Shown here: positions 14,701-63,769 of the stretch, one piece after another
Layout: each line of letters begins with the position of its first letter
Position numbering within the stretch: the first letter of the stretch is position 1
NCBI GenBank assembly: GCA_973895155.1
Contig: OZ316893.1
Span: 16,212,645 to 16,276,644, forward strand
DNA: 64,000 nt
DNA from: Marsupella aquatica
Lineage: Eukaryota; Plantae; Marchantiophyta
Reading direction: 5' to 3'
The notes under the pieces: model-generated
The model's input: the letters and a program-made list of their open reading frames with translations, nothing else
The model's database searches: none
What the model was told of the DNA's origin: nothing
Program-made: the position numbers and the translations under genes

Positions 14701-15218
14701 ATGTGTCGTATGCTAATAAAAGCAAATATCAAGAAATATATGCTAAAAACTCGGTGTTCGTTCCTGTGGAATAACAAGAATGAGATGATAAAATATTTTA
14801 AAGTCTTTTGAGTGGTTTAGAGATGGTACTCGACATCTTGAAGAAAAATAGAATCTTAAATAAAACATAGGTAATTAACAAAATATGAACAAAAGTGACA
14901 TTTGTTGAATAATAGAATCTTAAAGCTTTTAGAGGTATAGTTTAGCAATCTTTAAGTCCATCCTCATGTATTAAGAAGGAGTTATGGCATTGTTTGAGAC
15001 TGTCGTGACATATAGTATCGTAGCCATATAGTGTATCGAAAACATACAAGTCACCAGCAATGCATATGTGCAAGCTGCTAGCAACCAACATGCATAGAAA
15101 AAGTTCAATCACATTCACAAGTGCCAAGAAAAAGCAAGTGAGGTGGTATGTACGTAGTGGAGGTATAAACCTCTGTATCCCCCCCCAGACCACAGCCAAA
15201 AGGAGGGCTGAAGAAAAG

Positions 15219-16910
15219 TCAGATAGCACGTGGAGCACAGGAAGGGCAAAACCATAACCCTTCTGGCACCTGGGTAAGTTCAGGCCGAAGGCAGAAAAGA
15301 TGGTACCCTCCATTGCAATTGTCACACAGCAGCATCATCAATTCGCAAACACACTGATCTGATAAAGCATCAGCATCATCAATTCGCAAACACACTTTGC
15401 AAGGGTAGTCCACAGGTGGAATCCAAGTAGAAGTCACAATGGTGGGATCCAGGTTAGGCAGATGACAAGGGGCGCAATTCTTGGCATTGTCAGCAATTGT
15501 GCGCCCATCTGCCCCTTGTAACTCTAGCACTCCAGACGGTCGAATAGCTTTAACCCTGAGAATAGTACGACTGGTAGAGGTGTCCAGGGTGTCGTTAGCT
15601 TGCCGCTGCAAGTACACAAAATCTCCCACATCAAACTTCCTGACCTTGGGCTGAAAAGTGCCACCTCGTGTGTGTGCATAACGCAGTGTGTCCCTGTGCT
15701 GTGCAATGGTCAAATTCTCCATGGCCATGGGCATAACCCTCCTGAATAGGGCAGCCCTCTCAGAGATCACATCAGACCAAGTCACAGCTGAATCCAAGTC
15801 CACCACCTGAAGCATGTGAGCAGCAATAGCAGAAGGTGGAACTGGGTGACGACCAAACAACAAGAAGTAGGGAGAAAAGTTAGACAGTGATGCATGTCTG
15901 GACATCCTATACCCCATGGCAATGTAGGGTAAGGCCAGGTCCCAATCCTCCTTGTTTTTGGTGAGGCAGATCTTCCGGAGACCCTTCTTGCATGTCTGAA
16001 CCATGCGCTCTGCCAAGCCATCTGCCTGTGGGTGATCTCGTGATGTCCGGCGATGATCAATGAGGGCCTGATCAAGCAGCTCCTGGAACTCTCCTCTAAA
16101 CTCTGAGCCCTGGTCAGTGAGACATTCTGCACAAGCTCCAAAGCGGCTGAGAACTTGTTGCAGGAATGCCTGGCTGGTGCTACGGGAGGTCTTATCCGGC
16201 AATGCCACAAGTTCTATCCACTTGGAGAAATGCTCTATCATGATCATGATGTAGAGATTACCCCGAGATGTGAGGGGTAATTCTCCAGCCAAATCACATG
16301 ACCAGCGATAAAACATGCCCTGAATAGGGAGTGGATGAAGTGTGGGTTGCCGAGATGTGAAAGAAGTCCTCACCCTATCACACTGTTCACACCGGGCAAT
16401 AACATCTCGAACCTGGCCATGCATGCCTCTCCAATGATAATGAGGGACCAAGAGGCTGTAAGTCCTCTTAACACCAAAATGACCAAGCTCAGAATGTACC
16501 TTACGGATAAGGCCAACCCTCTCATGAATGGGTGGAACCACCACTTCCCTGTCTAGCAAGCAGCGCACGAGATGATCTCCCTTCCACAAGTAGCGCTTGG
16601 ACCTTTGCTGAATTCGGTCTCTCTGGGCAGCAGTAACATGTGTGGGGTACTCCCCATGCTGCAAAAATCTCAGAGTGTCGCTGTCCTCCCATATGTCCAC
16701 CACAGGTTGGTCAACAACATAGCATGGCAGCAAAGCAAGATAGGTCGATGCATGAAATGTAGGCAGGATGGAAACCTGGTCAAAATCTTGCCGTGCATCT
16801 GAGGAATCATCAGAGGTAATCAAAGGGTTGCGGGACATAGTGTCAGCATTCTGATGTGTCACACCAGGCCTATGAATTACCTCAAAATCATACTCCTGGA
16901 GTATGAGCGC
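15219..16910 (-). CDS. Integrase with C-terminal PHD finger
   Basis: HHCC motif (HSELGH..CEQC), DDE core (CDLAG..TDQGSEF..LAERMV), then CKVC..MLLCDNCNGGYHLFCL..VPEGLWFCPSC (Cys4-His-Cys3). A short tandem duplication at about 15330-15396 lies inside the PHD. Confidence 0.92.
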   Translation of the reverse strand, partial: ALILQEYDFEVIHRPGVTHQNADTMSRNPLITSDDSSDARQDFDQVSILPTFHASTYLALLPCYVVDQPVVDIWEDSDTLRFLQHGEYPTHVTAAQRDRIQQRSKRYLWKGDHLVRCLLDREVVVPPIHERVGLIRKVHSELGHFGVKRTYSLLVPHYHWRGMHGQVRDVIARCEQCDRVRTSFTSRQPTLHPLPIQGMFYRWSCDLAGELPLTSRGNLYIMIMIEHFSKWIELVALPDKTSRSTSQAFLQQVLSRFGACAECLTDQGSEFRGEFQELLDQALIDHRRTSRDHPQADGLAERMVQTCKKGLRKICLTKNKEDWDLALPYIAMGYRMSRHASLSNFSPYFLLFGRHPVPPSAIAAHMLQVVDLDSAVTWSDVISERAALFRRVMPMAMENLTIAQHRDTLRYAHTRGGTFQPKVRKFDVGDFVYLQRQANDTLDTSTSRTILRVKAIRPSGVLELQGADGRTIADNAKNCAPCHLPNLDPTIVTSTWIPPVDYPCKVCLRIDDADALSDQCVCELMMLLCDNCNGGYHLFCLRPELTQVPEGLWFCPSCAPRAI

Positions 16911-17052
16911 TCAACGAGCAAGCTTGCCAGTAAGCTTGTCGTTGGTCATCAACCACTTCAAGGGCTGGTGGTCGGTGTAGAGAACAAACCTGGTCCCATA
17001 GAGGTAGGGCCTATAATGTATGACAGCCCACACAACAGCAAGGCATTCACCC

Positions 17053-19359
17053 TCATAAGAAGAATAATGACTCTGCCTGATTGTTGCTCCTGGATGCATA
17101 GGCAATGACGTACTCTTTACCTTCCTCATCATGCTGGCCCAGAATGGCACCAATCCCAAGGGCACTCCAATCTGTGTGTAGCACAAAGACCTTGTTGAAA
17201 TCAGGTCTTCTTAGCACCGGGTATTCTGAGAGCTTCTCCTTCAAAGTGGCAAATGCTGCCTCAGCATCTGTACTCCATGTCCAAGTCACATTCTTTTTCA
17301 ACAAAGCATACAATGGGTGTGCAATGGTACTGAAATCTTTGATGTAGATCCGGTAGTAATTGCACAACCCAATAAAACTCCTCAAAGTGTGAACATCAGT
17401 AGGAGTGGGCATTTCCAAGATGGATACCACCTTGGCCCAGTGAGCCATGGTTCCATTTGGAAGAATGCGATGCCCAAGATATACTACTGATCTGACAGCA
17501 AATTCACACTTCTTGGGGTGTATCTTTAGGTTCACCTTCTTAAGCCTCATGAATAGCTCCTCAAGGTCAAGTAGATGCTGGTCAAATCCTTTGCTGTGGA
17601 CCAACACATCATCAATGTAGCATTTCAGAAACTCAGTACCTTGCAGAACCTGGTCCATGACTCTTTGAAAGAATATGGGCGCATTCTTCAAGCCAAATGG
17701 CATCACCAACCACTCCCATAGTTGGTTACTACCATGGAAAGTTGTTTTCTTGCGATCCTTTGCAAGCAGCAAAATCTGGTTGAAGCCTTGCCTTAGATCC
17801 ACAAGAGTGAAGATGTCTGAGTCTCCAATGCTGTCAAATAGCTCCTCTGGCCGCGGCATGGGGTACCTGTCCTGGGGTGTGACCAGGTTCAATGGCCTAT
17901 AGTCCCCACACATGCGCTTCTCTGTCCACAATCCACTGGAATCCTTCTTTGCTGGCATCACTGTAGCTGCCGCAAAATCTGATGTAGATGGCTGAATAAG
18001 ACCAGCTTCATAAAGCTCTTGGCACCTCTCATCCACCAGCTGCCACTCATGCTTACTCAAACGGTGTCTCCGCCTAAAGATAGGTGTTTTATCAGCCAAC
18101 TCAATGGAGAACTGCATAGTCTTGCACTTACCCAAGTCCTTCATAGAGAAAGCAAACACATTCTCATGCTTGAGGAGCAAATTCAGCAGCTGGTCCTTCT
18201 GTCTTTTACTCAGGTGGTTGCCCATGATAAATGTGTAGTTGACAACACTAGGAATAGGACCTGATGTACTCGTGCTTGAAGAGCCAGAAGTGCCAGCCTC
18301 TCCACTGTCCAAGCTGCTAGCATGCTGTTGATAAGGTGATGAGGCCTCTCCAAGGCCTGTTGTATCTGTTGCTCTGGTCTGATCCACACCATGAAACTCA
18401 GAAATAATGTCAGCCACATTACAAGGGACCTCCTCCCCCCCAACACTTGGACTGAAGCGGTGAGTGTTGAATAGAGGTAAGTGCACCTGGTCTGGATGCC
18501 ATGTAGCAGCACTATGGAGGGGTAGGGCTGGAGCTCCTAATGCTGGAGGAATGTACATCTGAAAAAGGATGCAAGTGACCAGAAGCCAAGTGAGAGCATT
18601 GAGATCCATTACCCTACCAAGTAAAGCATTCCTGGCCAGCCTGGTGATTTTGGTGTGACCTGTAGTACTGGGTTGGAAGCCCATAGCCCGTTCTCTCTCC
18701 TCAGGACTAGGTTCATCCCATGTACCGGTAGAATGTTGATAAACCAGCCCAGGACCATCACCCTGAAAAGCATGTGCACCTGGAAAGGACACAAATGTAG
18801 GCCAAGCAGCACGGGGTTGTCCAATGGTATTAGCTGGATACCAAGGTGCTGGCTCATGCTGTGTAACTGGTTGGCAAGAACTGTCAGGATCCAAAATCTG
18901 GTCCACTATAAGGTTAGTGTCCCTGGATGTGTGGTGAAGAGCCATCTCCAGCAAGGAAGGTGGTGCAAGGTTAGTCCAAAAGTTACAAAGACGATGTGCA
19001 TAAGAACCACAGTGCACTGCATCAATGAGAAGGGGTGGTCCCAAGTAGTGCTGGACCACACTGAAATCCTCTTTGACCTGTGGACGCTGGTCAAACTGAG
19101 ATGGAGTATTCTCAATGATATAACCAACAGCAGGATAAAGGGATTGAGCCCAGGTGAGAATCTGAACCAATGCTATGAAAAGGCCAGAACGAGAATCATG
19201 CAGTCCAGCACCGTGACCAGCAGCTAAAAACCCTTGGCATTCCCAACCAGCTATGATCAAATCAAGGGAGCCAAGAAGGGTTAAGTGCCGGTGCTGGACA
19301 AGCTGGATATCTGGAGGAAAGAAAGAAAATGCAGACTTCCATGCACTGTGTGGAAACTG
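17053..19359 (-). CDS. DNMT3-like catalytic domain (motifs IV-X), reverse transcriptase and RNase H
   Basis: DLIIAGWECQGF (IV), YIIENT (VI), AHRLCNFWTN (VIII), ERERAMGF (IX), RLARNALLGR (X); RT RMCGDYRPLN, MPFGLKNAP, YIDD; RNase H LHTDWSALGIGAIL. Frameshift near 17070 and a W-to-stop at 16911. Confidence 0.9.
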   Translation of the reverse strand, partial: QFPHSAWKSAFSFFPPDIQLVQHRHLTLLGSLDLIIAGWECQGFLAAGHGAGLHDSRSGLFIALVQILTWAQSLYPAVGYIIENTPSQFDQRPQVKEDFSVVQHYLGPPLLIDAVHCGSYAHRLCNFWTNLAPPSLLEMALHHTSRDTNLIVDQILDPDSSCQPVTQHEPAPWYPANTIGQPRAAWPTFVSFPGAHAFQGDGPGLVYQHSTGTWDEPSPEERERAMGFQPSTTGHTKITRLARNALLGRVMDLNALTWLLVTCILFQMYIPPALGAPALPLHSAATWHPDQVHLPLFNTHRFSPSVGGEEVPCNVADIISEFHGVDQTRATDTTGLGEASSPYQQHASSLDSGEAGTSGSSSTSTSGPIPSVVNYTFIMGNHLSKRQKDQLLNLLLKHENVFAFSMKDLGKCKTMQFSIELADKTPIFRRRHRLSKHEWQLVDERCQELYEAGLIQPSTSDFAAATVMPAKKDSSGLWTEKRMCGDYRPLNLVTPQDRYPMPRPEELFDSIGDSDIFTLVDLRQGFNQILLLAKDRKKTTFHGSNQLWEWLVMPFGLKNAPIFFQRVMDQVLQGTEFLKCYIDDVLVHSKGFDQHLLDLEELFMRLKKVNLKIHPKKCEFAVRSVVYLGHRILPNGTMAHWAKVVSILEMPTPTDVHTLRSFIGLCNYYRIYIKDFSTIAHPLYALLKKNVTWTWSTDAEAAFATLKEKLSEYPVLRRPDFNKVFVLHTDWSALGIGAILGQHDEEGKEYVIAYASRSNNQAESLFFL

Positions 19360-22300
19360 CTAAGGAAATCGCTCTGAACATTCCAGCAGACGGGATTCAG
19401 CCACTTGCCTTGCACCTGGATCAATATCCACATAGATGTACTGCTTCACCACCATGCCAGACTGTAGGAGAGCTTCCAGGCCTGTAGAAATGCCACCAAA
19501 AAGCTCAAGCAATGTAAGGCCATCTGAAGGAGGAGTCCATGTAACTGGTGCGCTCAAGATTGGGGCTATTGGTAGTCCATGATGCTGCCCAAGGTCCTCA
19601 AATTTGTGCAATGCAGCCACCAAAGGTCCATGGGCTACTTGGAGCCGTTGTACCACCTCTGGTTGATGATCCACGTTGCTGGAAAGTGCTGCTACACGTG
19701 CAGCAGCATGTGCAGTAGCCACCTCATCCTCATCATCCTCAATCCAATCCTGCAATGGGTGGTTGACATAGGTAGCTATGTGCACTGCTTTCAATACACA
19801 GTGGTGAGCCATAGGTGTATGGGCACCATGCAAATCAAGTGGAATGTAGCCCAAGTGTGAGCCATCCGTATGCCAATCAACTCTGTAGTATGCATGCTCA
19901 TGCCAATTGTCAATGGTAAAACCTGGTGGGAACAAAGCCTCCTGGCCAATGAGCACATCATACGTAGTGGCATTGGTAACCAAACATCTGACTGGGAAAT
20001 GCAATTCCTGATCTGTACCTCCATTAAAAGTGAGAGTGAGTAAAGTAGAACTCTCACCCAGCACATCCTCCACAGTGCCACTAGCAGTCCGAATGTGCCA
20101 CCTGGATTGCTGTAAATGATCAGTCAACAGTCCCATCTTCTTGGCAAACTGAATGCCCAATATCACTGGTTGAGCACCTGTGTCTAGCATGACCACCTGA
20201 GGAGTGTGACCCTCCAACTTGACTGCTGAATTCCTGTTGTCAACAATGGCAATGGTGGTGGAAACTAAAGTCCTGTCACTAGGCACCACTTTTGGCAAAT
20301 GATGAGGTACCTTGTGAAGGGAGTTAGTGTCCACGGTCTTTCCACTCAACAACATAGCCAGGAAAGATGGAGCAGCATGACCAGAATCAAGTGTAGCTCT
20401 GGTCACACAATCAGCAGCAATCGGTACTGGGGCAGCCAAACCAGTGGAAACATGTAAAGGAGAAGAAAAAGGTCCAGTATGTACATGAGATTGGACCTCC
20501 AAAACCGGTGTCATAGGGGCTGATGAAGAATGCAGTGAGCCCTCTAGCGCTCTGATGACAGCTCTAGCATCCAGCTGTAAATCATGGCAACTGAAAAGTG
20601 GAGTTGTAAGAATCCTTTGTGCCATACCGGAGGTGAAATGCTCAAGCAGCTCAGGAGAAACAACTCCCTGTGAAATGTCAGCAGCACCTGGTGGTGGAAT
20701 GGATGTAGCTGCAGCTCCCTCCCCCCTCGCCAACAAGGTGCGCTCTTCAGCAAGTGTGAGTGGCTGAAAAGATTGGGGCAGGACAGCCCGAGCGCCCCTG
20801 GCTCTAGTCAGAGGACCGGCAGCAAGACCATCAGCCTGTACAATGCGGCGTGTGGGAGCAATACGGGAGGCAACACTGGCCTGCTGGTAAGCAAAATAGG
20901 AAGGGCAGAATGAATCTGAAAATTCTGCTGTAAGGCCAGGCTGTGGAGCAGAGGACAACACACACTCACCCATATGAGCATCAAATGGTAAGCCATAGAA
21001 AGAGCGGGGTAGAGGTGCTGAACTGTCAGCGGTGCCTGGGCCAGGGATGGGTTGCACGTGACCAGCCGGTTGAGAAGGACCAGCAGAGGCAGTGGACTTG
21101 CCTTTGATGTTGGCAAGTTGGGCACGTAAGGACTCAACCTCATGAGTCAGAGACTGGAGTTGAGTTGCCTGTGCGTTGTGAGCCTCCTTCTGAGCTGGTT
21201 GCTTCTGTGGCTGCTTGGGCAATTTGTTAGCACCGGGTGCTTTGCCACTGGAAGGAGGAGCAGTGGATGCAGTAGGAGCCCTCCTAGCTGGTGGGGGAGT
21301 GGAAACAGGAGCAGGATGAGTGGCCTGCTGTCGTAGCTGCTTCCTCTCGGGGAATTTGGCAAAATAGACTGCCTCCAAGTGGCCCACTTTCCCGCAAAAA
21401 TCACAAGATAGGTCCTCAGCAACAATATCACATTCATTAGCCTTGTGATTAGGGTTACCACAGTAGTTGCAAGATGGCAGCATGAAAGCAGCATGTGCTG
21501 GCTTGGTCTTGGAACCATACTGTGGCACACGGGGAGGAGTGGCCAGTGTAGGGGCAGCAGCCTGGTACCTGGATCGCGGTGGACGTGCAATACTGGCCTC
21601 ATAATGTGCATGGGCCAACTCAAGTTTCTCAGCAGTGTCATAGACATTGAGCAAGGTGTAGCTGTCTCCAAACTCTGAGAATACTTGTTGCAACACTTGT
21701 GAATGGAGAGCTGGTGTGCCCTCCAATGCGCGAAGATAGCGATGAGCAACTTCCAGGTCAGTGATGCTCTGGGTGTCCTCCTTCAGCTTGAGAAGCCGGA
21801 GATACATCATCTTCAATGTTTCATCGCGCTGCCTCACAAAGGTGGCCAACTGCATGATTTTGTCAGCACTCTTGATTGGGAATTCCAATTCAAGAACCTG
21901 GAAAAACTCAGCCACTGGATCAGCAAAGGCAGGGGAATCAATGGTGGGAGAAATGCCTGATGTAGCCTGTGCCAAGACAGTGGGAGTAACAGGCGCAGTG
22001 GTAGGAACTGGAGTAGGAGGGGAAGTGGCAGGAGCAGCAACATGGGCTGCAATGGCATTTTGTAAGGCCAATTGTGAAGCTGCCACAATTGCACTGGCAT
22101 AGGTAGGTGGGTTAGGCAACTGTGTGACAGCAAGCAGCCGTTGAGAGTGCTGCTTATACACATCTAAAGCCTCATGGTGCACATACCTGGCTAGCTGCTT
22201 AAATGCAAACGCATTTGTGAAATTGCTGCCGTACTTCAACTCCAATTCGTAAACGACAGTGTAAAAAGTGGATTTGAACTCACATAAAGAGACAGTGCCT

Positions 22301-22614
22301 GGCCGCCCGCTGAAGCGCTCAATGCGGCCAGATGAGTGGCTGGCATCCATGCTGTATGTCGGTGAAGCAGGAACAACCACTGATGCAGAAGGGGTAAATG
22401 GCAATGAAGTGATAGCAGGCTTCGGAGTAGTGGTGAAGCAACCGCCAAATGTAGCAGGAGGATTGCGTGGTGTTGGTGCTGCTGCTGTCTGCGGACGTCG
22501 TCGAAATTGACGAGACTCCAATGAAATTGGCACCAATGGTCGTGGATCACTCCGTAAGTGGTACCGGGGTGTCGGTGGCGATGAGCTGCTACGACTCGGC
22601 TCCTCTGCTGACAT
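19360..22614 (-). CDS. Gag-protease plus N-terminus of the C5 DNA methyltransferase (first segment of the polyprotein)
   Basis: Zinc knuckles CNYCGNPNHKANEC and CDFCGKVGH; aspartic protease VMLDTGAQ; DNMT motif I LLELFGGISTGLEAL and motif II YVDID. Ends at an in-frame TAG, and the same frame continues into the 19260 ORF. Confidence 0.9.
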   Translation of the reverse strand: MSAEEPSRSSSSPPTPRYHLRSDPRPLVPISLESRQFRRRPQTAAAPTPRNPPATFGGCFTTTPKPAITSLPFTPSASVVVPASPTYSMDASHSSGRIERFSGRPGTVSLCEFKSTFYTVVYELELKYGSNFTNAFAFKQLARYVHHEALDVYKQHSQRLLAVTQLPNPPTYASAIVAASQLALQNAIAAHVAAPATSPPTPVPTTAPVTPTVLAQATSGISPTIDSPAFADPVAEFFQVLELEFPIKSADKIMQLATFVRQRDETLKMMYLRLLKLKEDTQSITDLEVAHRYLRALEGTPALHSQVLQQVFSEFGDSYTLLNVYDTAEKLELAHAHYEASIARPPRSRYQAAAPTLATPPRVPQYGSKTKPAHAAFMLPSCNYCGNPNHKANECDIVAEDLSCDFCGKVGHLEAVYFAKFPERKQLRQQATHPAPVSTPPPARRAPTASTAPPSSGKAPGANKLPKQPQKQPAQKEAHNAQATQLQSLTHEVESLRAQLANIKGKSTASAGPSQPAGHVQPIPGPGTADSSAPLPRSFYGLPFDAHMGECVLSSAPQPGLTAEFSDSFCPSYFAYQQASVASRIAPTRRIVQADGLAAGPLTRARGARAVLPQSFQPLTLAEERTLLARGEGAAATSIPPPGAADISQGVVSPELLEHFTSGMAQRILTTPLFSCHDLQLDARAVIRALEGSLHSSSAPMTPVLEVQSHVHTGPFSSPLHVSTGLAAPVPIAADCVTRATLDSGHAAPSFLAMLLSGKTVDTNSLHKVPHHLPKVVPSDRTLVSTTIAIVDNRNSAVKLEGHTPQVVMLDTGAQPVILGIQFAKKMGLLTDHLQQSRWHIRTASGTVEDVLGESSTLLTLTFNGGTDQELHFPVRCLVTNATTYDVLIGQEALFPPGFTIDNWHEHAYYRVDWHTDGSHLGYIPLDLHGAHTPMAHHCVLKAVHIATYVNHPLQDWIEDDEDEVATAHAAARVAALSSNVDHQPEVVQRLQVAHGPLVAALHKFEDLGQHHGLPIAPILSAPVTWTPPSDGLTLLELFGGISTGLEALLQSGMVVKQYIYVDIDPGARQVAESRLLECSERFP

Positions 22615-22939
22615 GCTGCATGCTCACCCGGGGTGCCTAAATCAAAAATGTCCCCCTTCCCGGTGGTACGAGGTGCTGAGGGGAAAGAAACTGACAAGAA
22701 AAATGGGTGCTAGCCCCAAGGCTAGGAAATAAAACCCACAAAGGAAACAACCGTGCGAGGCAGAAATGTGTAGACTGGCCCTGCCGAAAATATACTCACA
22801 AAAAAAATGAACAGAAAGAAAACAAGAGGAAACGGCGAAAAGGGGCCTCCGTTATGTGTATAGACAGGGGTCTGTGTATACACATAAAGGGTACCGGTCG
22901 GTGTTGGGTATTTACTCTTACGTCTAGGTTAGGTATGAC

Positions 22940-43755: not shown

Positions 43756-44340
43756 GTGCAACGCACAGGTATTGAGCTCGTACTCCATAAAACTGCAGCG
43801 GCAATAGCACTCAGAGTTCCCATACAACAAATTCAGAAACAGAGGAATCCCACCTCAAGAACTCGCTTTGCAGTACAGGTTTTAAGATCAATGTATGGGC
43901 TTAAACAAAGCGGATTGACATGGTACAAAAGATTCAAATCCGAGATGCTAGCCATGGGATTTAAGAATGCTGATATAGCTCCATGCCTGTTTCTGAAGCG
44001 AGAGGAAAAAGAAATTATTATTGTGGCTATATATGTGGACGATTTGAACCTATTCGGAACAACAAATATTATGATGGAAACCATCAAGCTACTGAAAAAG
44101 GCCTTCGAGATGCGCGACCTAGGGCAGACTTCTTTCTGCCTAGGCTTACAATTTGAGCATCTGCAAAATGGCATCTTACTGCATCAGTCCACATACATCA
44201 AAAACATTTTGAAGCAATTTAACATGGACAAGGCCACAGCAGTCAAATCTCCCATGGACATTCAATCCCTTGATAAAGAAAAGGACATCTTCCGGAAGAG
44301 AAATGAGATGGAGCCACTACTTGGCCCAGAAAAACCGGGT

Positions 44341-44690
44341 ATAGTGACGGAGACAGGAAACAGGTAAATAGGAATTTTTTTTCCTATTTTTAATATGCTG
44401 TTACCAGGAAAAAATCACTGTTACCAGGAAAAAATCACTGTTACCAGGAAAAATGACAATTTAAAAATGTCTCCTAAAACATGTTATTTCCAACAAAAAT
44501 TAACAATGCAACATTTTTGGCTAGCTTTGGGCGTTACTATTAGCAGCGCCGGGTGCTAGCAAAAAAAACTGGTCAACCGAAGAAAAAAAATTCAAAAAAA
44601 ATTCAAAAAAAAATTCCACCCATTTTCCTGTGACCAGTTTTTTTTCCTGTTACCAGTTTCTGTTATTAAATCCTGTTTCCTGTTTGCTAT
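44341..44690. mobile_element. MITE-like element with imperfect terminal inverted repeats
   Basis: atagtgacggagacaggaaacagg pairs with cctgtttcctgtttgctat. Internal 20-bp repeat gttaccaggaaaaaatcact x3. No TSD seen. Confidence 0.5.
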
Positions 44691-45029
44691 CTTTTGTAAA
44701 CACCTCGACATAAATATCCGATGCATTTCGTGATGGTCCTAGTCCGATACAACTACCAACGCAAACATCTTGCGATGCATTAAGGTTCGGACGTATTATG
44801 TGGTCATGGCGACATAGTTTCCGATATGTTTAGTGTTGGACAATGTCCGATAGTAATAAGATGGGACAACGTATGCGATGGGTTCTACATCGGAATGTAG
44901 AGGTCTGATGGGATCAGGATCGGAAAATACATTGCGGGGCACATCGAATATTGTCCAAAGTGTTCGGAATTGGATGGGTGAAGTTTGGCTCAAAAGGAGT
45001 ATCGGAAAACTGCCAAAAATGTACTAGTG
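44691..45029. mobile_element. CACTA terminus (right-facing end)
   Basis: TGTACTAGTG ends at 45029, preceded by many CCGAT/ATCGG repeats. Confidence 0.8.
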
Positions 45030-45252
45030 AAGCGATGTAAGTTGTGTAGCGATGTGTATGCGCACGACAGCTGCTCCCGATGTTGATCTTCCCGAATACC
45101 CTCCAATGTGTGCCAACAAAGAGATTGAGCAAAGTGAAAGGCATCACTGTGCTCCTTCTCTGGGTGATGGACCCCTCCAAAAAAAACATTCCGAATGGCG
45201 ATCCATCCAGCCTCGGCATTATCGGCAATAAATCCTCCAATGAGTGGGTCAT

Positions 45253-46832
45253 CACTAGTACAGAATTCACCCTTAATCCAATTCTCCTCAAATCGGACCC
45301 CTTCGGCAGATTGTTGCAGTTTTTACCGATGTTCCAATTTAAGTCGCATTGTATCATCCAATCCCCAAACAATCGGGTTAGCGTTATCGGACCGAGATCG
45401 GACTTGTCCAATTAAACTAGTATCGGAAAGACGCATACAATTCAAAAGAAATGGCAAACAATTGTCCAATTATGTGAGAATGGCATGACCATTTCCAAGT
45501 ACTTCGCAATCGGAAACTATTGTGCTATTGTACTACAATGGGACAGGGGTCCCAATTAGAATCAAATCAAAAATTGAAGTGCGATTACCCCAATCGGCGG
45601 CCCTAGTGCTGCCCGGCCTGATCCTACTCCTCCACGGGTTGCATATCACTAGCTAACTGGTGTATTCTTTTGTGTGAGGCTTCAAGTCTTAGCAAGACTG
45701 TGGGCTACTAGAGAAGTCAGGTCACCCATCCCAAACACTATTCCTCAATAGGTGCTTAACTTCCTAGTTCTTAGCTCTTGCGTTGTACATGCAACCTTAG
45801 GCACATTTGATGTTTCTTATAGAGTGCCTGGGGTTTTTATACACCTTTGAGTTCATTTAGATCCACAGTTTGGGCCAATTCTTGATGAATTCTTGCGTAT
45901 CATGACATTGGGTTGCGTGTTCAATTATGAAAGCTCTATGTTGACCATATGGGAACCAATTTACCTATCAATGTTAGATCTCCAAACAAACCTATGTCCT
46001 CCTCAAATTGCTACAATTCCTTTTGGGGCGTGGTTAAGTTCATTTAGGGATACAATATATATAGAATTTTGACCTAGATGACAATGAAGACAACTATTTT
46101 TGTTGACCGCAAGAATTTTTTTTCATCGAGTCAAAAGGCTTTGACTTACAATTTAACGAAAACTTTTGGTAACCATTATAGGGTAGTGCATTGTAAAGAT
46201 AGGAATGGCCATTGGCATAAGATTTCTCATCCTAGGAACACATACTACAAAGGCTATGCTACACATGATTCAGGACCGGTCAATACTTTCCATGAGCAGA
46301 TGAGGGATGACCCTGGCCTTGCCAAAGGTTCCAATTCTAAATGAATCGTAGACACACTTCCAATTCCCAAAGAGTTGGACCAAGATCTCATTGTATTTGT
46401 ATTGCAAATATGAATCCCATTGCCTACCACTTGGAAACAATTGTCCAATCCTGAAAACCTTGGAATATCCAATTCCATGCGCATCAAAAACTTCCAATTT
46501 GTATTGAATGGCAACTTCCAATTCTAATTTGATCGGAAAACGTGCTTACATTTTTCTTTGGAAAGGGGTTCCAATTCATCTAGCATTGGAGAAGAATCGG
46601 ACCAAGCGGTCCAATTGTTTCTGGCTTGGACAAACAATCCAACTTTTCCTACATCGTAGTGACGGCCCGTTTGTGATTGGGTTGGAATGGTGATAGTCCA
46701 ATTCTAGTTTAATGGCAAGGTATGATACGCGTTGGCTTGGACGGTTGGATCGTACATCCAATTAGAATAGAATCGGAAACCTTGGCATCATCGGAAGGTG
46801 AGAATCGGACTAGGCCCCAAAATGTACTAGTG
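45253..46832. mobile_element. Non-autonomous CACTA element (1580 bp)
   Basis: TIRs CACTAGTACA (45253) and TGTACTAGTG (46832). 3-bp TSD CAT on both sides. ATCGG/CCAAT subterminal repeats. Confidence 0.93.
45719..45771 (-). other. 5S rRNA-derived fragment (not a full gene)
   Basis: aggtcacccatcccaaacactattcctcaataggtgcttaacttcctagttct aligns to the reverse complement of the plant 5S internal region (AGGTCACCCATCCTAGTACTACTCTCGCCCAAGCACGCTTAACT.CGGAGTTCT). Confidence 0.6.
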
Positions 46833-49203
46833 CATGCACATCATGATTAGAGGCAACTTCAATCATATGTCTCCATGCGGTTTCAAGAGACAAGGAGTCC
46901 TCCGCACGGAGCTCACAAGTGAAGATGGTACAAAGGGACTTGTAATTATGGTTGTACACATGGGCGCTGAATGTCAGCCACCCAGTGCTTATTCTCCGCA
47001 TCACATCAGAACTGATCCATGCTCCTTCCAGCTCACCTCCACTCCTCATCTGCCTGAGAATATCGACACCAGAACCTGGGCCATTGGTACTCATTTTGAA
47101 TACATGAGCCCTATCGGTCTTGCTCCCCTGGCCAGGGAAAATGTACCTCTGAACGTAAGGAAAATTATTCCGGGCTTGCATCTCACGAAGTGAATCCAAC
47201 TCACCTTTTTTTGGGTTATCCATTTTCACGCTCCGGAATATGGTCTGGAATTTCTCAATAGTGGACACAACTTTCATCGATTCCCAAATGTTTCTCTTCT
47301 TCTTTTGATAGTTCTGAAGAAGACTCTAGATGCAAAAGAGAAACCAGGTTTCCTATAGACTTGTTAAGAACACGCCTTGGCATACACACGGGATTTGCTT
47401 TATGAACACCAGAAACTATCTCCTCCGCCTGCTTTTTTGCCAATCAAGATTTCCCTTTCCAAACAACGTGGTCATGGAAACCCATGTGAACAGCCAATTG
47501 AGACATATGTTTTGCAACATTTGACTCAAGAGATGGCTTAGGATAGACGTACAAAAGTTTAGCCGGACATTCACGGATGCAGAGAGGCCTCTCCTCACAG
47601 AATCCGCACACCAACCCTCCTTCCTCCACAAGCTCACCAAGATGAAATGGCTCATGCAGTAAATTGTCCCTTTCCTCGGAAGGAAGAGTCATTTTTTGAA
47701 CCGGTGTGCTTCAACTTTCTACAGACCAGATTTTGACATTCAAGTACACCGGCACATCTGACTTTCGACACAGACTAGTGGTTGCGAGGTTTGAGATTAG
47801 CTGAAGTTGTGAGAAGTCTCGTCCATGGGTAGCCATCATTATCCCTATCCATGTCCTGAAGACCATATCCTCAACAAAATTGACCTTTGACTGGAGGAAG
47901 CTCAAAAATGCAGTTCCCGTTGTATGAAGTGGGCAAAGTCTGCACTTGAATCTCCTTCCAATCGTTTCCCCTCCGGAAATTTGCCAACTCGCTTGACCCA
48001 ATAATATTGAGGAAGGCATCATATGCACTAACTCTATAAAGAACTGGCTGAGATTGAAACTCGTTTTGACTCACTGCTTCAAAAACGGCTTTCTCAGAAG
48101 ACTTTATAGAGACAGAAGAGAGATCCCAACCCACACTCTCAGGGGAGATGTCGATAATTTTGGGTACTGCAAGTGACAGGCGAGTCGGCAATTCTGGATC
48201 TGAAACATTGATATGTGCAATGTCATCCTTGCATGAGACTAGCTCTACACCTGAACCACACTTCAGGTCCCAAGCTCTCTCTGACAATATTCCTTAACCA
48301 TTATCCGACACCTCGTGACTTCTGGATCCATTCCGAGAGTAAAGAAGGAACAACTTCCAGATGAAATCATCTTCCAAAAGCCCAAACCTCGATGAGAGGA
48401 AAGACTCCTTGACAGAGATAACATTATTCTCCGGAACATCCAGAACAACAACACCACCCGTCTTCTTTCTCTCGATCACAACCTTCGACCCCATAGAAGA
48501 CATGCTGACAGTTTTGGACATTACAGTCTACAACAATCCTCAAATGTGAGATACTTTGCTCTCCTCTTTCTCCAAATACATATGAGGAAACGTGCTCGTG
48601 TAGGTGTTTGACTCAACGTATTTATTTAATAAATGCCTCTTCTTCCCGTTACCTGACTGTTATTTTGTCTTATTTGAAACTATTTAATGAATGATAAAGC
48701 TAGCAAGATCGCTAGCTCAATCTACCATGTAAAATTGGTCAAAAACGTACATAACACCCTTCACGAGTTCGTGTATTTAGTGACCAGTTTTTGGCTAGCG
48801 ATGTCGCTAGCAAAAATAGTTTGTCATAAGTGACCATTATGACCATTTATATCCTTTGGAATTGGTCAATGGGTACCTCTATGTCAATGGTACGGTACAG
48901 TATAGGACACATGTCTCTTTGTTATTAGCTACTTTTCTTTCAGTCATGAGTTTGGTTCTTTGTATTTTCAGAAGTACATGTATACCTGACGGTGTCTGAA
49001 AAATGACTGTGAAGAGCGTCAAACAGAATATCTGCATCTCTTTTCACAACCGGGCGCATTCAGGTGAAAGCAACAGACAAGGGTACGATTATGTCTTTGA
49101 CTAGATGATTGATTCTCGGGTTTCAAGGATTTCTTTACGTTTGCAAAGCGTGTCGCCCTCGACCTTGACCTGTTCATACCCTTATCACGTCACGGACCCG
49201 CTG

Positions 49204-52200
49204 ATGGAGCCATTGCCTTCACCCAAGAGCTTGTCATCAATAGAATCGTTTCAAGTCAGTCGAGTCAAGCCGAAGGGAGACAAGGTCTACAGCAAACAAG
49301 AAGGCACTCCAGACAAGATTGAAAACACCAAGGAGATCAAAGATGGTGAACCAAGTGGATTTTGTGAATCCTACGTTTCAACCTGGAGCTTCAGAACCCT
49401 ATTCTGTTGTCATCAATCGCTATCTTTTCTCTTTTGGAAATGACAAATTTGGATTCCCCCTCGCTCCTCCAAGGATTCCTCTTTGCAGAATGCAAAATAT
49501 GCAGATCGAGACACTCAAGAATGAATTTTGGATGCAAGGATACATCGAGGATGCGCCTCAATTTTACGTACAAATGACCGACAAAGAGGGCCATGTCCAG
49601 ATGTGCGACGACATGATTCGGGAGTCGTGGGATGACATGTGGATTCTTCAGAATGAAGAATTCGAGAGGGAATGTGATTCTCACGAAGCTTTCAAAATTT
49701 TGAAAGACAAAATGTTTTGTGTTTTCGATGGAAATCATCGTCTCTACTCATGGATGCAGCTTGCAGACGAGAATCCACATGATGTCAAATATCATCCTCG
49801 AGTTGTTTGCCAAATTTTCAAGGGTGACAAGAACTCATTCGTACAGATTGAGTCGGCGATGCATGCGTTGAATAGGTTTGTTTCTTTTCCTTCAAGCAGT
49901 GAATTGTATATAAAATTCTTTCATTTCCTCTTGTTAGCGATCTCACTGACCTGTTTCTTTGGTTCAGGTTGACTCAATGTCACGTTGAGAATTCTTGGGT
50001 TCTTGAAGCAGAGTGAGTCTAGAAGGTGCTCAGCAATGACCTTTCTGTATACAAAGATATCATTGATGCAGACAACTACAAACTTTTCCAGCAGAAGATG
50101 GCAAATATCAGGAAACCAGCTTGGTGTTCAAAGAACATGACACTCGATGCCTGCACATACATTCTGTCTACTGCTAATATTGCAGCGCAGACGGAAGATT
50201 TGAAGAAGAAGTTCCAATTGAAAGAAGCGCAAGGAGAACCTCTTTCAAAAGTTTCACAAGACATGGCTGTGAAAGACATGATGAAGGAGAAACTAGCAGA
50301 TTGGAATGTGAAGGTGCCAAAGATTGGACCTCTTTTGAATCCTGAGTTTGGTGAATTTTTCCAGAAGTGTGTTGAGATGCACAACTATTGCAAACATGAG
50401 AGGACAAAGGCCCAACAAATAGACGATAAAGGAAGGGGTAATGTGTCATGTGGTCTCGATCGTGCGAGGCTATTTACGGGTGTCTCTTCGTTGACTCCGT
50501 AGCTCAGATGTGTACTACTTGAGGCACAATGCAGACCTGAGCTTTGCAAGAAGTACTTCCACCCTGGTCAATTCTCGGACAGCAAAACAAAACTTTGGCT
50601 TCACCGATGGGTTGTATGGGAGCAGGTCGAGTCAATTTGTTCTTCGCTCATGTCTGAGATTATTTCAGAGTTGATCCCAACTGTTCCAGATGCGAGGATC
50701 CTTACTTTGTCTGAGAAGACAAAGCCATCGCTGATCCTTGACATAGAGGACTTTGAAGATTTCTAAACAAGAGTGAAATCTTGTTTTTTCAAACAGATTT
50801 GGCCACCAAAGTCGGGTGAGAAGATTGACATCTCACTTTTTTGGAGGAGGGCGAAGAGATATACGTATTGTTTTTTTGTGGATAGAGAAGTTGCTGACAA
50901 AACATATTGGTGGTCCTATCCTACTTGCTTCTCGCCTTGGATAGAAGGGGTGAAAGAGGATCCAACCTCCATTAAATACGAAGAGTACTCGATGTACCCA
51001 TGTGAGGGAGTGGAGGCTCCAAGGAACATGAGTGAGTGGGAAGTCCTTCACTGTCCATGGTATTTAGAATCAAACACATGGGCAATGACATTTGACACAG
51101 CAGAGAAGGCAGCCTTTCATATGATAAATCGAGGCTTGATACCAGAGTCGTACATTACAGAGTCCAAATTAGCTCCTGCAGAAGCAGAGGCTGGCGGATG
51201 TGAGGCAATAGAGAAAGTTGTTCTTGGTGTAGCTGCCATTGTTGACCGGAGTAGATTGAGGAGACCTCGGAAGGTGCCGGTGAAGGACACGTCCAAAGAT
51301 GGATCAGTTTTGTCTGGGAAGCAAAGTAAGTCTTTTTCTCCTCTTTTTTTCATACCTCAGTCGGAGTAATTTTTTCTAAGTCACCTGTCTGACATTGACA
51401 TGTTTTTTAGAGAAGAGAAAGGCTGCAGCCTCTGGGAGTTTGAAGAGTGGGGCGAATGATGGAGAAGAACCCAAGTCTCCTGATGTTGAGGTCACAACAA
51501 AATCTGTTGTGGACCTTGGTTCAATCAAGCGTTTAAAGAGGAAGCGTAATGTCCAAATTCTCTCTGACTCGGATGAGGAGGAAGCATGCGTCGCTCAAGG
51601 AGTAGCACGAATGTGTGGTCTTAAGAAGGACGGTGAGAGAAATTTCTTGGCAAAGAGCAATCTCATGGAAACTGCAAACTCAATTAGCCAGAGGAAAGTA
51701 AGACCTCCCTGGATGGGCGATGCGGATCAGTGGTTGTTTGGAATGGGCAAATTGAGCAAACACCCAAACCCAGTGATGATCAACGGCAAACATTATGCTA
51801 GGATTGGTGCTCACTTGGGTTTCATTTTCCTTCCCATGGTCATCGAACGAGTGTCACAGACCGGGAGGTCCCGAAGTGGAATGTTTGGAGTGAGAAATTA
51901 CCATATTATTTCTTTGGAGTCATGCGTCCGATGCTTGCCGACGATGGTTATGTCGCAATTCTTCACAGCTCTGACTATAACCATATGAGACAAAAAAAAA
52001 TCTGCCGTCGAGCAGACAAACAAATTCAAACATGTCCGGTAGTATTCGGTTTTGCTTTCATCTCCTTTGTATCAGGCAGATATGGACATCGAGGTAAGAT
52101 ATCCACGATAGTTTGCGTGCAGTTTTTGCTAGCGAGCTTGCTAACCAAAAGTACCCATTTCTGACATATTCTTATTTTCAATTCAGGTAGTTACTCTCAT

Positions 52201-52661
52201 TATGGATGTCTTCTCCAAGGTGGAATTCTGAGAAAAGTCCCAAAACATACAGGATATGTTCCAGTGACTTCCTCTAAGGATGCCCGCCATAAATTGATGT
52301 TGAGTGTTTGCTACCCAAAAACTGATCCTAGTCCCAGGGTGGCTTTTGCAGGTTCCAATAGATTGTCAGTTGGGTTCATGCAAGCCGTAATGGAGATCCT
52401 TACTTTGCCAAAGGACATTGTCATTGACTGGACTGTTGGAGATGGAAGTGCTTTTGCCGCTGGGGAATACGTTGGGAGATTCATCTGTGTGCACAAAAAA
52501 CTTTGGCAAATATGTTGGATAGACATGCCCAGAAGTTGAAAGGGGCCGGAGATCCGAAGAATGATGATCCCAATGATGAAGGATCGGATGATGAGTTCAC
52601 GATCCCAGGAGATGATCAGGGAGGACCTGAAGACAAGAAGGATGAATTCGACCTGGAGTAA
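49204..52661 (+). pseudogene. Spliced gene: ParB/Srx-like N-terminus plus degenerate beta-class N4-C/N6-A DNA methyltransferase-like C-terminus
   Basis: VFDGNHRL at about 49720-49745. Candidate GT-AG introns about 49876-49967, 51326-51410 and 52093-52186. GFIFLP(Y/H)G..WNV..LADDGYVAILH, then RLSVGFMQAVMEILTLPKDIVIDWTVGDGSAFAAGEYVGRFI. Several stops and frameshifts. Confidence 0.6.
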
Positions 52662-53424
52662 AGCACTTGGTCTTTGATGTAGAATTCCCTATTTGGTGTT
52701 TTTCTTTTATTTGTAGAATTTTTGGATGTGTAGTATTGATCCAATGCTAGTGATTTCTTCAATGATAGGCGTTCAGATTGGTTTTTGGAGGAGATATTCT
52801 GTCTTCGGAAAGAAATCGAGGATCATTTTCTTGTGACCCCTGAGAAGGGATTTGCGCTTCCTTGCTATGCTGAAAAGACTGCAAAGGAGGTTGATGAAGC
52901 ACCCGTCGTTTTGACTTGGGAGGGGAAAGGTCTGCGGTCAGTGAGGGGTGCTCGAAAAGCCCTTTATTGCCCTCAGTTCATAGATGATGAGGCTGGTACT
53001 GTAGCACAGTATGTTGACGATTCGGCTGAGGAGACTAATAGGGAGTCGAGTAGCGATCCTAGTAATTCCTCAGATCATTTGGAATCAAAGGATTCTCAAT
53101 GACTCATGGTCAATTTCAGATGCAATCTCATTCCAGAAGATATTTGTCATACCAAAGCTTTATTAAAGATGGATTGTGAAAGGTTTTTTGACCTGGTTTT
53201 GTTGACAGTGATGATGTCTTTTCATTCAGTTCAGTGTAGTGAAGATCTCTATTTTTTTGGTTGTGAATATTTCAGTATCTGCATTTCCCTTTTTCATAAC
53301 TATTTCACAATATATATCGACAATCTTACTTGGGAATCCGCCTTAACTACCCTGAAGTTACCCACAAACTTGCCTCGCTAGCCTGTTGTCCTCGCTAGCA
53401 AAACTCTTGTTTGCTCGCACAATA

Positions 53425-54242
53425 GAATACCTAAAGGAAGAAGGGCTTCCTCCCATCACAGAGAATACTCTCTACAAGATCTGGAGCAACTCATTTGCAA
53501 ACTTCAGTTTCCATAAAGGTGGTGCATTTGCCAAGTGTACTCTTTGAACATTGTGAATACAAAGACAATTTGATGCAAGAAAGAAGGAAAAAAGAATGTG
53601 CTAAAATTGAAGAAAAACGAGTGCAACATCTTCATGAGCAAATGTCACGTAGATATGTTTACTACGCTTATCAAGTGATGGCCAAGCAACACCTAGGAGA
53701 ATATCTTTGCATTATTCATGACAAGATGGATCAAGCAAAGACATGGATTCCAAAAATAGTTAGTACTCCTAAATCACTTTTGGGTCATGGAATGCCGCAT
53801 TCCTATTGCTCTCATAGGGATGTTGACTCACGGGAGGGATCCAGGAGTTTATGCACATTTTGGTGTCATTGGCCTTTGGCCATAAGATGCCAATTTTACG
53901 GTGACATCCTTGGCTAAGTGTCTTCAAGACCTTGAAGAGTACAATGGAGACAAGACAGGTGACATGTTGGATGACCTTCATTGGGAACCTCACAGACCTT
54001 TCTTTCAAGCCCTACTTGACCTTGAAGCATTTTTGATGGGTTATTTGGAACCAAAGAATATACTAGTGAATAGGTATATTGGTTATGAAGATGGAACCGA
54101 CAATTGGACTGAGACCGTCCCAAACCGGCAAGATGAGGATGATGGAGAAGACATGCATGGGGAGCAAGGCAGCCCATCGTTCAAGCCCTTACCAAGGCAC
54201 CTAACATCATAGATGGATAATTCAGCAAAGGACAAAAAAAGC
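53425..54242 (+). pseudogene. N-terminal/central part of a DDE transposase (Sola-like)
   Basis: FAKCTL..HLHEQMSRR..CIIHDKMDQAKT..GMLTHG..DANFTVTSLAKCL..PLPRHL..MDNSAKDKK, ending at a CACTA TIR. Confidence 0.75.
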
Positions 54243-55279
54243 CACTAGTACATTTTGAGTTTTCTTACCGATTGTATTTCCATTGGACGCCTTCAAGAAA
54301 TCCGACGCGGAAATCTCACCTGTTCAATACCAAAAGAATTGCATTTTACGATCTAATTTGTATTGGAAAACGACAATCGGAAACCAATCGGAACTACCAA
54401 TACTACAAAGTTTGGGAGTTCTATCCTTTAAAATGTTGGGAATTGCTATGTCCGATGCTGGTTAATTGGATGTCTGTTCCGCACATTTTCTGTTAACGGA
54501 GGCATCCAATTCTAGACTGATAGTATGGGCATGGAAATTCCCGATTGTATTGGGATTGAAAACATCCAATTATTTGGGGAACGGAAATTGAGATTATACT
54601 AGCATCAGACTTTGCAATACTTTGGGAATGGAAAATTACGATCATTGTGGCAACGGATATGGATCAATATCTACCGGAAACTATTTGGCGAGCTTGATTG
54701 GGCCGATTTTAAATGGGGGGCTAATTGGGGGTTTAATTGGGGTGCAATTTAATTCTTTAACTGAGTTTTTATTTAGGGTTTAGAGAGGGCATTTAGTTGA
54801 TGGAAGTGAGACTATGAATTTTGATTGCACACTATGTACCTTGAAACCCGGGCATGACATGGCGTAACTATATCTTATATACAAATATGAAATATCCAGG
54901 GCAAAAGTACAAAAATGGAGAACATCTCCATGCATAGTGCCAGCTATGCTAAAGGCTGGGCATATCAAATGTACATAATGCCCTCCAACTATCCACCTCG
55001 CTAGCCTGGTACTAGATGTATATATGTCTACCTAGTCCATTATCCATACAAGCTATGTCGCGTCTTCCTCTTCTTCACACGGGAATGACTAGGCTGCTCT
55101 GCTCTACGAGTCTCTACTACTGACACACTAGGTAGCACATCATGGTCCTGGCTACCTGATCTGCCTCCATCGTCATGTGGATGAGGGGCAAAAGCAGTCT
55201 CTGGTACTCCCCCACCTCCAGATGCGCCTGAGCCATGGGAGGGCACTCCTTCCCCGACACAAGTGTGGAAAGAAGCCCC

Positions 55280-62466: not shown

Positions 62467-63769
62467 ATGTCAACTTCTGAGAGTTTGGATACAGATTCCA
62501 ACTCTGACTTGTCTTCCTCTGAGGGGGACATTCCTCCTCCCCCTCAACATCCTCGAGCACCCCCTCCATTAGGCCCTATTCCATGCTGGTGTGTTAGATG
62601 TAAAGGACTGGTGGTGCGTCAAGCGTGGCAGTCCATTGAACACATCGAAAACTATGGTCGACATGAGGGTGATTTACCAGGATATTCAGCTCGCCAGGTA
62701 TTGCTTGACATGAACTCCGCTATATATGATACACTATCATAATAGTTGGCTGGTTTGAGACCTTTTAGGAGACAAGTATTAATTTTTGTTTGTTTATGAT
62801 TGAATAGGTGCCTTGTAGGGCCCGTCCTCCATTGGTCTCTAGTCAGCTAATGCATGATGCATTTCTAGCTGGTGCTAGACAGTTGCTTGCATCATCAGTT
62901 GAACACCCTGAGCAATCATGTACCCCCGCACATGTTCAGGAAGATGTTGTTTGTGAACCCACAGTGGTAGAGTTGGAGCATGGTAGGGATGATGCACCGC
63001 CCCCTACTAGGGTTCTACGCACAAGACCACATTCTCATAGACGTCAACAACAGCATGTAGTTCTAGACATAGACCCATCCCATGAGCACTTCAGAAGCAG
63101 TGTTATGCCTCCACCAGGGGAGGAGTACATAAAAGTTGAAGGGAGGTTGGGCTTATCATATGTGACGGGAAAGACAATCAGTGTCTTCAAGGATTTTGAC
63201 CCTAAGAGTTTTGCGATTCCTCGTGGCCTAGCCATTGATATCCCTGTACATATATGGGGTCGGCAATGGATAGTGAAGGCATTGACCCTTGGCGGGGAGG
63301 TTGGATTAGGCTATTTGCTTTGGAGGACATTGAGGTCCCTCCAAAGCCTTGGCGTCGTGGCTATGATGGGGAACACCTTTTCCCTTACATTGGGTCTGTG
63401 TATACATCCAAGAGTTGGAACATCCTCTTGCGCCAACATCCAGTTTGGGGGGTATATGCATTGCAGACGGACTCTCACCCAGATGAGGTCCTAAGGAGGC
63501 CTTGGCATTGTAGGATAATTGATGGGGACCCTGTGCGTTCAGATAACATAGTTGGGTACATCAATAGTACACATGGTAGAGGGAGTGGACTCCAGCCTAA
63601 TGTAGAGTGGGCTCAGATTTTTGGCCCACCCACTCCGCCTTACTATGTCACACATATGGATGATCATGTTATGACAATAGCCATACGGACCATTAGGGCG
63701 AGTGATGAGTTGTTTTGTGACTATGAGTGGGACGCACCCAAGATGGGCATTCGATCTGGCCACACTTAG
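62467..63769 (+). pseudogene. Spliced gene: CACTA transposase-associated Zn motif plus SET domain (one frameshift); probably continues past the window
   Basis: Exon 62467-62697 with IPCWCVRCKG..IEHIENYG. Phase-0 GT-AG intron 62698-62807. SET motifs GLG|LFALEDI, FPYIG, IIDG..NIVGYINS, QPNV, AIRTIRASDELFCDY. 1-bp frameshift near 63310. A further exon may start near 63941. Confidence 0.75.

Follow-up and report, generated by a model that had tools for sequence, protein, structure and literature searches.

Transposons of algae can carry accessory genes with ParB-like and methylase domains, and their products are presumed to methylate. Green algal versions of this accessory protein were reportedly noted by Iyer et al. 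in 2011. In the brown alga Ectocarpus, the large DNA transposon Sola1-1_Ec32 encodes an accessory protein of about 1100–1200 aa that combines a ParB-like domain with an N4/N6 methyltransferase domain (PMC12477816). In the red alga Bostrychia, Plavaka transposons carry ParB-like and N6-methylase domains in their accessory genes PAG2 and PAG3; this cargo moves between superfamilies (Mutator included) and has inverted repeats beside the ParB-like gene (10.1101/2025.02.11.637652). The two domains stand in separate genes there, one coupling ParB to a 2OG oxygenase and the other coupling the methylase to a SET domain, and the repeats lie in tandem arrays (10.1101/2025.02.11.637652). Only VANDAL, a Mutator-like element, is described as an experimentally known case of a transposon that encodes a protein protecting it (10.1101/2025.02.11.637652). 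Its protein VANC is itself transposon-borne and recognizes a short motif found within the element, both in introns and between genes (PMC5735166).

Here, we describe a gene from the liverwort Marsupella aquatica that resembles the Ectocarpus protein in design. It lies in a 64-kb stretch (the window, meaning all of the DNA analysed) of eukaryotic DNA rich in repeats, Copia and Gypsy elements among them. The ParB-methylase design has already been described in Ectocarpus Sola1-1; a version from land plants that is a probable pseudo-enzyme and has a conserved site was not found in the literature searched, a body thin on subscription papers.

A broken copy of a five-exon gene

The copy in the window is a pseudogene of a multi-copy, five-exon gene on the plus strand (about 49204–53102). 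Its exons were drawn from six-frame reading, splice-site phases and homologue matches, with an uncertain start and last acceptor. Exon 1 (49204–49875) encodes a low-complexity N-terminus followed by a ParB/Srx-like domain; its part 49328–49873 is matched by residues 130–321 of P0154, a Riccia gene model. The DGNHR motif that the preliminary description had placed near the N-terminus lies at 49727–49741, preceded by a 40-aa insert. Intron 1 (49876–49967, GT-AG, phase 2) is read straight across by homologues. Exon 2 (49968–51325) encodes a conserved middle region of about 450 aa, which is matched by P0002 at E 2e-108 and for which neither a Pfam match nor a family assignment was obtained. Behind intron 2 (51326–51410, GT-AG, phase 1), exon 3 (51411–52093) contains a linker and the first half of a beta-class methyltransferase-like domain. 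The SAM-binding half and an acidic tail follow in exon 4 (52187–52657), after intron 3 (52094–52186, GT-AG, phase 0).

The gene extends past 52661, where the preliminary description had placed its end: the Calypogeia protein P0160 matches a further exon at 52779–53066 (46% identity, E 4e-18), which we draw as exon 5 (52769–53102, acceptor predicted), with the stop at 53102. This exon carries the C-terminal motif F-x-LP-x-YA ... P-x-FIDD-x-A and an acidic end, and the motif is found in P0160 and seven Riccia-type proteins. Over 52860–53010, its core (F-x-LP-x-YA ... FIDD-x-A) is conserved across the window, Calypogeia and Riccia proteins. The FIDD-type motif may resemble acidic motifs of chromatin factors.

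The reading frame is interrupted by four premature stops in exon 2 (50014, 50020, 50500 and 50764) and by frameshifts near 49360 in exon 1, near 51836 and 51995 in exon 3, and near 52232. In addition, a 29-letter deletion behind 52481 removed motif II from this copy; the stretch is present in other copies. Contigs of public sequencing runs contain copies without the stops and frameshifts.

A liverwort gene family

A phmmer search with 49969–52536 (X at stops) against 1.84 billion proteins gave 162 proteins at E<=0.001, of which 30 representatives comprise 9 from Riccia sorocarpa, 3 from Calypogeia fissa and 18 without a species name. A profile search for prokaryotic relatives returned 38 further matches, all of them liverwort proteins (33 from Riccia, on 8 contigs, and 5 from Calypogeia) and none prokaryotic. 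Phage matches were weak and covered the SAM half only, so no donor is named. Single window pieces gave no match in word-seeded protein searches, nor did window pieces alone in a Pfam search. Many Riccia members (e.g. P0152, P0154 and P0155) bear the UniRef label 'Trimethylguanosine synthase', for which the fold search gives no support. The sequence L002 proved to be a usual type of phage methylase, with an intact DPPY motif.

P0154 (1207 aa) matches exons 1, 2 and 4 in window order and is the one model, itself a prediction like all gene models here, in which all three regions are fused at full length. Besides P0154, the Riccia proteins P0024, P0156 and P0162 have both end domains, and P0160 spans exon 2 to exon 5; of the 196 collected proteins, 4 are matched by the ParB as well as the methyltransferase profile. 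Phase-consistent GT-AG sites and these fused models bear out the earlier view of a single, intron-containing gene, and the sequences make it unlikely that the two end domains belong to separate transcripts.

In a tree of 48 rows and 106 columns, which took no rows under 85 residues and had no Marchantia or bdelloid row, the window copy groups with Calypogeia and unnamed rows (support 96/95), apart from Riccia; the tree carries long-branch warnings. The named matches included no Marchantia protein. The family is repeated in public runs: in one of them (X1), 7768 contigs match, across all identity bands. Many divergent contigs cover the region 44400–55100 in 30 of 30 bins in all four runs, a depth that is not to be read as copy number. 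Among the contigs listed, none bridges the gene to either flanking transposase frame, nor any two genes.

A predicted methyltransferase fold with a degenerate motif IV

By prediction, the C-terminal domain has a beta-class amino-methyltransferase fold, with motif IV before motif I. PF01555 clusters make up 24 of its 30 language-model matches, the family profile matches M1.HpyAVI (E 4e-5), CcrM, TTHA0409 and M.MboIIA, and 28 of 64 members match phrog_3008. An AlphaFold model of the Calypogeia protein P0022, built on a 64-row alignment that included window pieces, has a pLDDT of 82–97 (about 90) over most of residues 121–390. Foldseek aligned this model with CcrM at E 8e-14. In structure comparison, the top 11 VIA rows are all beta-class enzymes, collinear with the model (Z 15.4–18.7), while MT-A70 enzymes reach Z 9.9–12.5 and all others 6.7 or less. 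A Rossmann methyltransferase fold, on which the preliminary description had staked its reading, is thus predicted, with the best score (Z 18.7) to CcrM. Beta-class enzymes (CcrM, M.BceJIV, M.MboIIA, M.PvuII and M1.HpyAVI; PF01555) share the fold, the permuted order and the SAM motif with the family, at 10–18% identity, but their [DNSH]PP[YFW] is absent from it.

The SAM-binding side of the domain is well preserved. The C-terminal block ILTLPKDIVIDWTVGDGSAFAAGEYVGRF is present at about 52396–52481, as first noted, and includes motif I (DWTVGDG, 52426–52446), in which the D is kept in 60 of 62 sequences and the first and second G in 58 of 62 each. The final I of the 'GRFI' read earlier is a product of the 29-letter loss; copies in other runs read on as V-V-G-V-E-D-R, which includes the acidic motif II residue and confirms that motif II is present there.

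Motif IV tells a different story. The motif IV-like FIFLP (51821–51835) does precede motif I, in beta order, and the degeneracy noted earlier for the D/S-PPY motif now extends to the whole family. The reading FIFLP(Y/H)G needs correction: the window is one base short at 51836, and other copies in all four runs have Thr-Gly after FIFLP, giving F-L-P-T-G (in exon 3, F-L-P-(T)-G from 51827, with PxWN downstream). Across 48 gap-free rows (near-identical paralogues included, not collapsed), the fourth place is T in 21, S in 20, N in 5, I in 1 and C in 1, and aromatic in none. The first Pro is replaced, as the second place is P in none of the 48. The first place, which closes strand 181–185 of the model as expected for motif IV, is D in 29 of 48 rows, all of the Riccia type, and F, Y, S, C or A in the window's clade. 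The motif therefore takes the form D-L/M-P-S/T-G in Riccia and F/Y-L-P-T/N-G in the window's clade; the catalytic [DNSH]PP[YFW] occurs in none of the family rows read. In the accepted mechanism, the motif IV aromatic stacks on and holds the target base (PMC4738411). Judged from the aligned rows, this catalytic signature is lost in every relative read, whereas the Ectocarpus protein is predicted to methylate (PMC12477816).

Is this loss simply decay? L001, a 1059-base metagenome contig, encodes a relative with 37 of 80 residues identical to the window (46%) and has intron 3 at the same position. Identity between the two at first, second and third codon positions is 0.56, 0.71 and 0.28, and four-fold sites differ at 13 of 16. 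Since third positions are saturated and first and second positions kept, the domain appears to have been selected in this state. Together, the family-wide loss of the motif and the saturated synonymous sites point to a conserved domain rather than to decay, and one that is probably non-catalytic.

A special link to the bdelloid and Marchantia 4mC enzymes, which the preliminary description had mentioned, was not supported. MpDN4MT1 (Marchantia) and N4CMT (Adineta) are also eukaryotic beta-class domains of prokaryotic type, but both are described as active, low-copy host enzymes with TSPPY or SPPY and no ParB (10.1101/2021.02.12.428880, PMC10406627). Adineta N4CMT also ranks below the bacterial enzymes (Z 15.7 versus 18.7 for the best). 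Closer in design is the accessory protein that the Ectocarpus transposon encodes (PMC12477816), a brown algal precedent that the preliminary description did not name.

A putative ParB-type domain

Exon 1 likely encodes a bacterial-type, ParB-type DNA-binding domain, an assignment that draws on DGNHR and language-model matches. The D-G-N is invariant in 14 of 14 aligned rows, and the full DGNHR, found in most members, fits the G-x-x-R nucleotide motif that follows a strand in the ParB/Srx superfamily. Atlas neighbours include clusters with ParB_N (11%) and DUF3723 (31%), at 0.92–0.94, and one of the 14 rows matches phrog_1033 (E 0.02). Against viral DGNHR proteins, hhalign gave probabilities of 83–93% with the motif in place, and the elements align with phage ParB_N proteins (83%) once the 40-residue insert is removed; of 10 viral DGNHR proteins checked, 9 were ParB_N matches. 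With the motif masked, the probability fell to 0.2–0.4% across 21 viral DGNHR proteins, as low as for shuffles. The ParB-like identity suggested earlier is likely on the strength of DGNHR and the language-model matches, and the wider similarity is lost once the motif is masked. A single-sequence fold of this piece reached a pLDDT of 31, and its profile gave no useful match among PDB sequences, phages and plasmids.

A palindrome kept in the same intron

Intron 3 contains an 18-bp palindrome (52128–52145) of the type GCTAGCGA-NN-TCGCTAGC. Two further copies lie between two divergent genes (48699–48716 and 48794–48811), and two half-sites TCGCTAGC on the plus strand (53375–53399, starting at 53375 and 53392) stand directly before the right-hand transposase-like frame. 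Another half-site is found at 54998, past a CACTA end at 54243. The 64 kb contain 7 half-sites against 0.51 expected, all within 48709–55005 and none in the other 57 kb; the pattern was derived from the window after the fact, so these counts overstate the enrichment.

The independent test is L001, a single locus. Its intron matches a window site at 15 of 18 positions, a score reached by 0 of 20000 shuffles, and the best match elsewhere in introns is 11 of 18. The palindrome is kept inside the same intron of a relative at saturated synonymous distance. We regard it as a likely candidate binding site of this family's protein. The main text of the Ectocarpus paper, by comparison, makes no mention of a palindrome (PMC12477816).

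Genomic context

To the left, on the minus strand, lies a broken gene (45030–48600), interrupted by a CACTA insertion and truncated at 45029. From its motifs, with a D...D...DxxH-like spacing, we take this to be a putative Mutator-like transposase gene; its pieces gave no Pfam, NCBIfam or PDB match. The insertion is a nested CACTA-type element (45253–46832) with termini CACTAGTACA and a 3-bp duplication CAT, and other copies of the gene join 45243 to 46833. The accessory gene of Ectocarpus Sola1-1_Ec32 likewise stands opposite in strand to its transposase gene (PMC12477816). P0117, a Riccia model, fuses a homologue of the N-terminal part of the left gene (38%, E 3e-14) to the family's middle exon, on the same strand there, and is the only one of the 196 collected proteins that matches a flank. 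This hints at an old partnership between the left gene and the ParB–methyltransferase gene.

To the right, a broken DUF7869 transposase piece (PF25273; 53404–54242, plus strand) is short at its 5′ end and cut by the CACTA end at 54243. The match (E 0.0018) scores 18.3 bits, which is below the cut-off of 26. We presume this piece to be a Sola-like transposase. The DUF7869 frame starts about 300 bases past the gene's stop (53102–53434), after two half-sites and an AG, and its relatives have coding sequence upstream; it is either 5′-truncated or spliced to upstream exons.

The gene had been proposed to be transposon-borne, between two transposase genes. The repetition and the transposase-like flanks agree with this; neither transposase reaches a curated threshold, and both ends of the element have been removed by CACTA termini, on the left at 45029 and on the right at 54243. 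On balance, the gene is likely an accessory gene of a large DNA transposon.

Several other features of the window may be recorded. At 44486–44583, other copies carry plant telomere-like AAACCCT repeats. The region 44337–44700 contains the start of an insertion that interrupts a Copia reverse transcriptase and has GCTAGC-type motifs like those at 48781–48811; this insertion may be a related element end. In a Gypsy element on the minus strand (15200–22700), a C5 cytosine methyltransferase piece (PF00145, E 0.001) separates the protease from the reverse transcriptase, and a PHD finger follows the integrase. On the plus strand, a frame at 63239–63769 encodes a SET domain (PF00856, 25.1 bits) and may be carried as cargo by a CACTA element.

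Possible roles of the intact protein

The explanation we favor, with restrained confidence, is that this copy is the remnant of a likely transposon accessory gene. The intact product would combine a likely ParB-type domain and a helical middle region with a predicted beta-class methyltransferase fold that keeps its SAM motif and lacks the motif IV aromatic, and it likely binds the element's own 18-bp palindrome instead of methylating DNA. In bacteria, ParB loads on parS palindromes. By analogy, the N-terminal half would load on the element's palindromes, in promoter and intron alike, and the methyltransferase-like domain would dimerize and contact DNA or SAM. The element might thereby stay transcribed or ready to transpose, as VANC achieves for VANDAL. 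We infer this binding and its effect from ParB/parS, from the inverted repeats beside PAG3, and from the VANC motifs in introns and intergenic regions. VANC is not known to be linked to the family by sequence, its motifs form direct arrays, and its anti-silencing is demonstrated, whereas that of the liverwort protein is inferred (PMC5735166). A bolder version, which we put forward tentatively and with more doubt than conviction, is that bryophyte DNA transposons use ParB/parS-like self-recognition: a clamp protein would load on the palindrome and spread, and the dead SAM-binding fold with its acidic tail would shield the element from silencing, independently of VANC.

Could the intact protein methylate after all? 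It would then work as an amino-methyltransferase of a non-canonical kind and place 4mC or 6mA on the element that encodes it; the target base would be held by a different residue, perhaps the conserved Trp of PxWN. Conserved motifs I and II, the Asp with which motif IV still opens in Riccia (29 of 48 rows) and purifying selection on the domain all fit such an enzyme, and the Ectocarpus authors suggest methylation for their protein (PMC12477816). We nevertheless think it unlikely, given that the aromatic is missing from 48 of 48 rows, that the first Pro is replaced, and that the window's clade also swaps the Asp for F, Y, S, C or A.

Also to be weighed is an unrelated role for the palindrome as a transposase-binding or regulatory site, in which case the protein would act on chromatin or RNA whatever the sequence. 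Half-sites before the DUF7869 frame and past the CACTA end (54998) would suit this, as would the conserved acidic FIDD motif at the protein's end and a ParB identity that is still putative. Against it stand the retention of the site inside the gene's own intron at saturated synonymous distance and the inverted repeats beside the ParB-like PAG3 of red algae (10.1101/2025.02.11.637652), and we judge it quite improbable. That annotation merged two genes, one ParB-like and one methyltransferase-like, would explain why most database proteins span one part only. Yet the splice sites are in phase throughout, the parts are joined in four Riccia proteins (P0154, P0024, P0156 and P0162) and in P0160 of Calypogeia, the window shows the same order, and the Ectocarpus protein has a like design and size (PMC12477816), so we hold a merger to be very unlikely.

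Concluding remarks

The family extends the algal ParB-methylase design to land plants, and its conservation in a form that probably lacks catalysis argues that methylation is not what is conserved. With a candidate binding site named, binding of the palindrome by the family's own protein becomes an idea that is directly testable in a liverwort.
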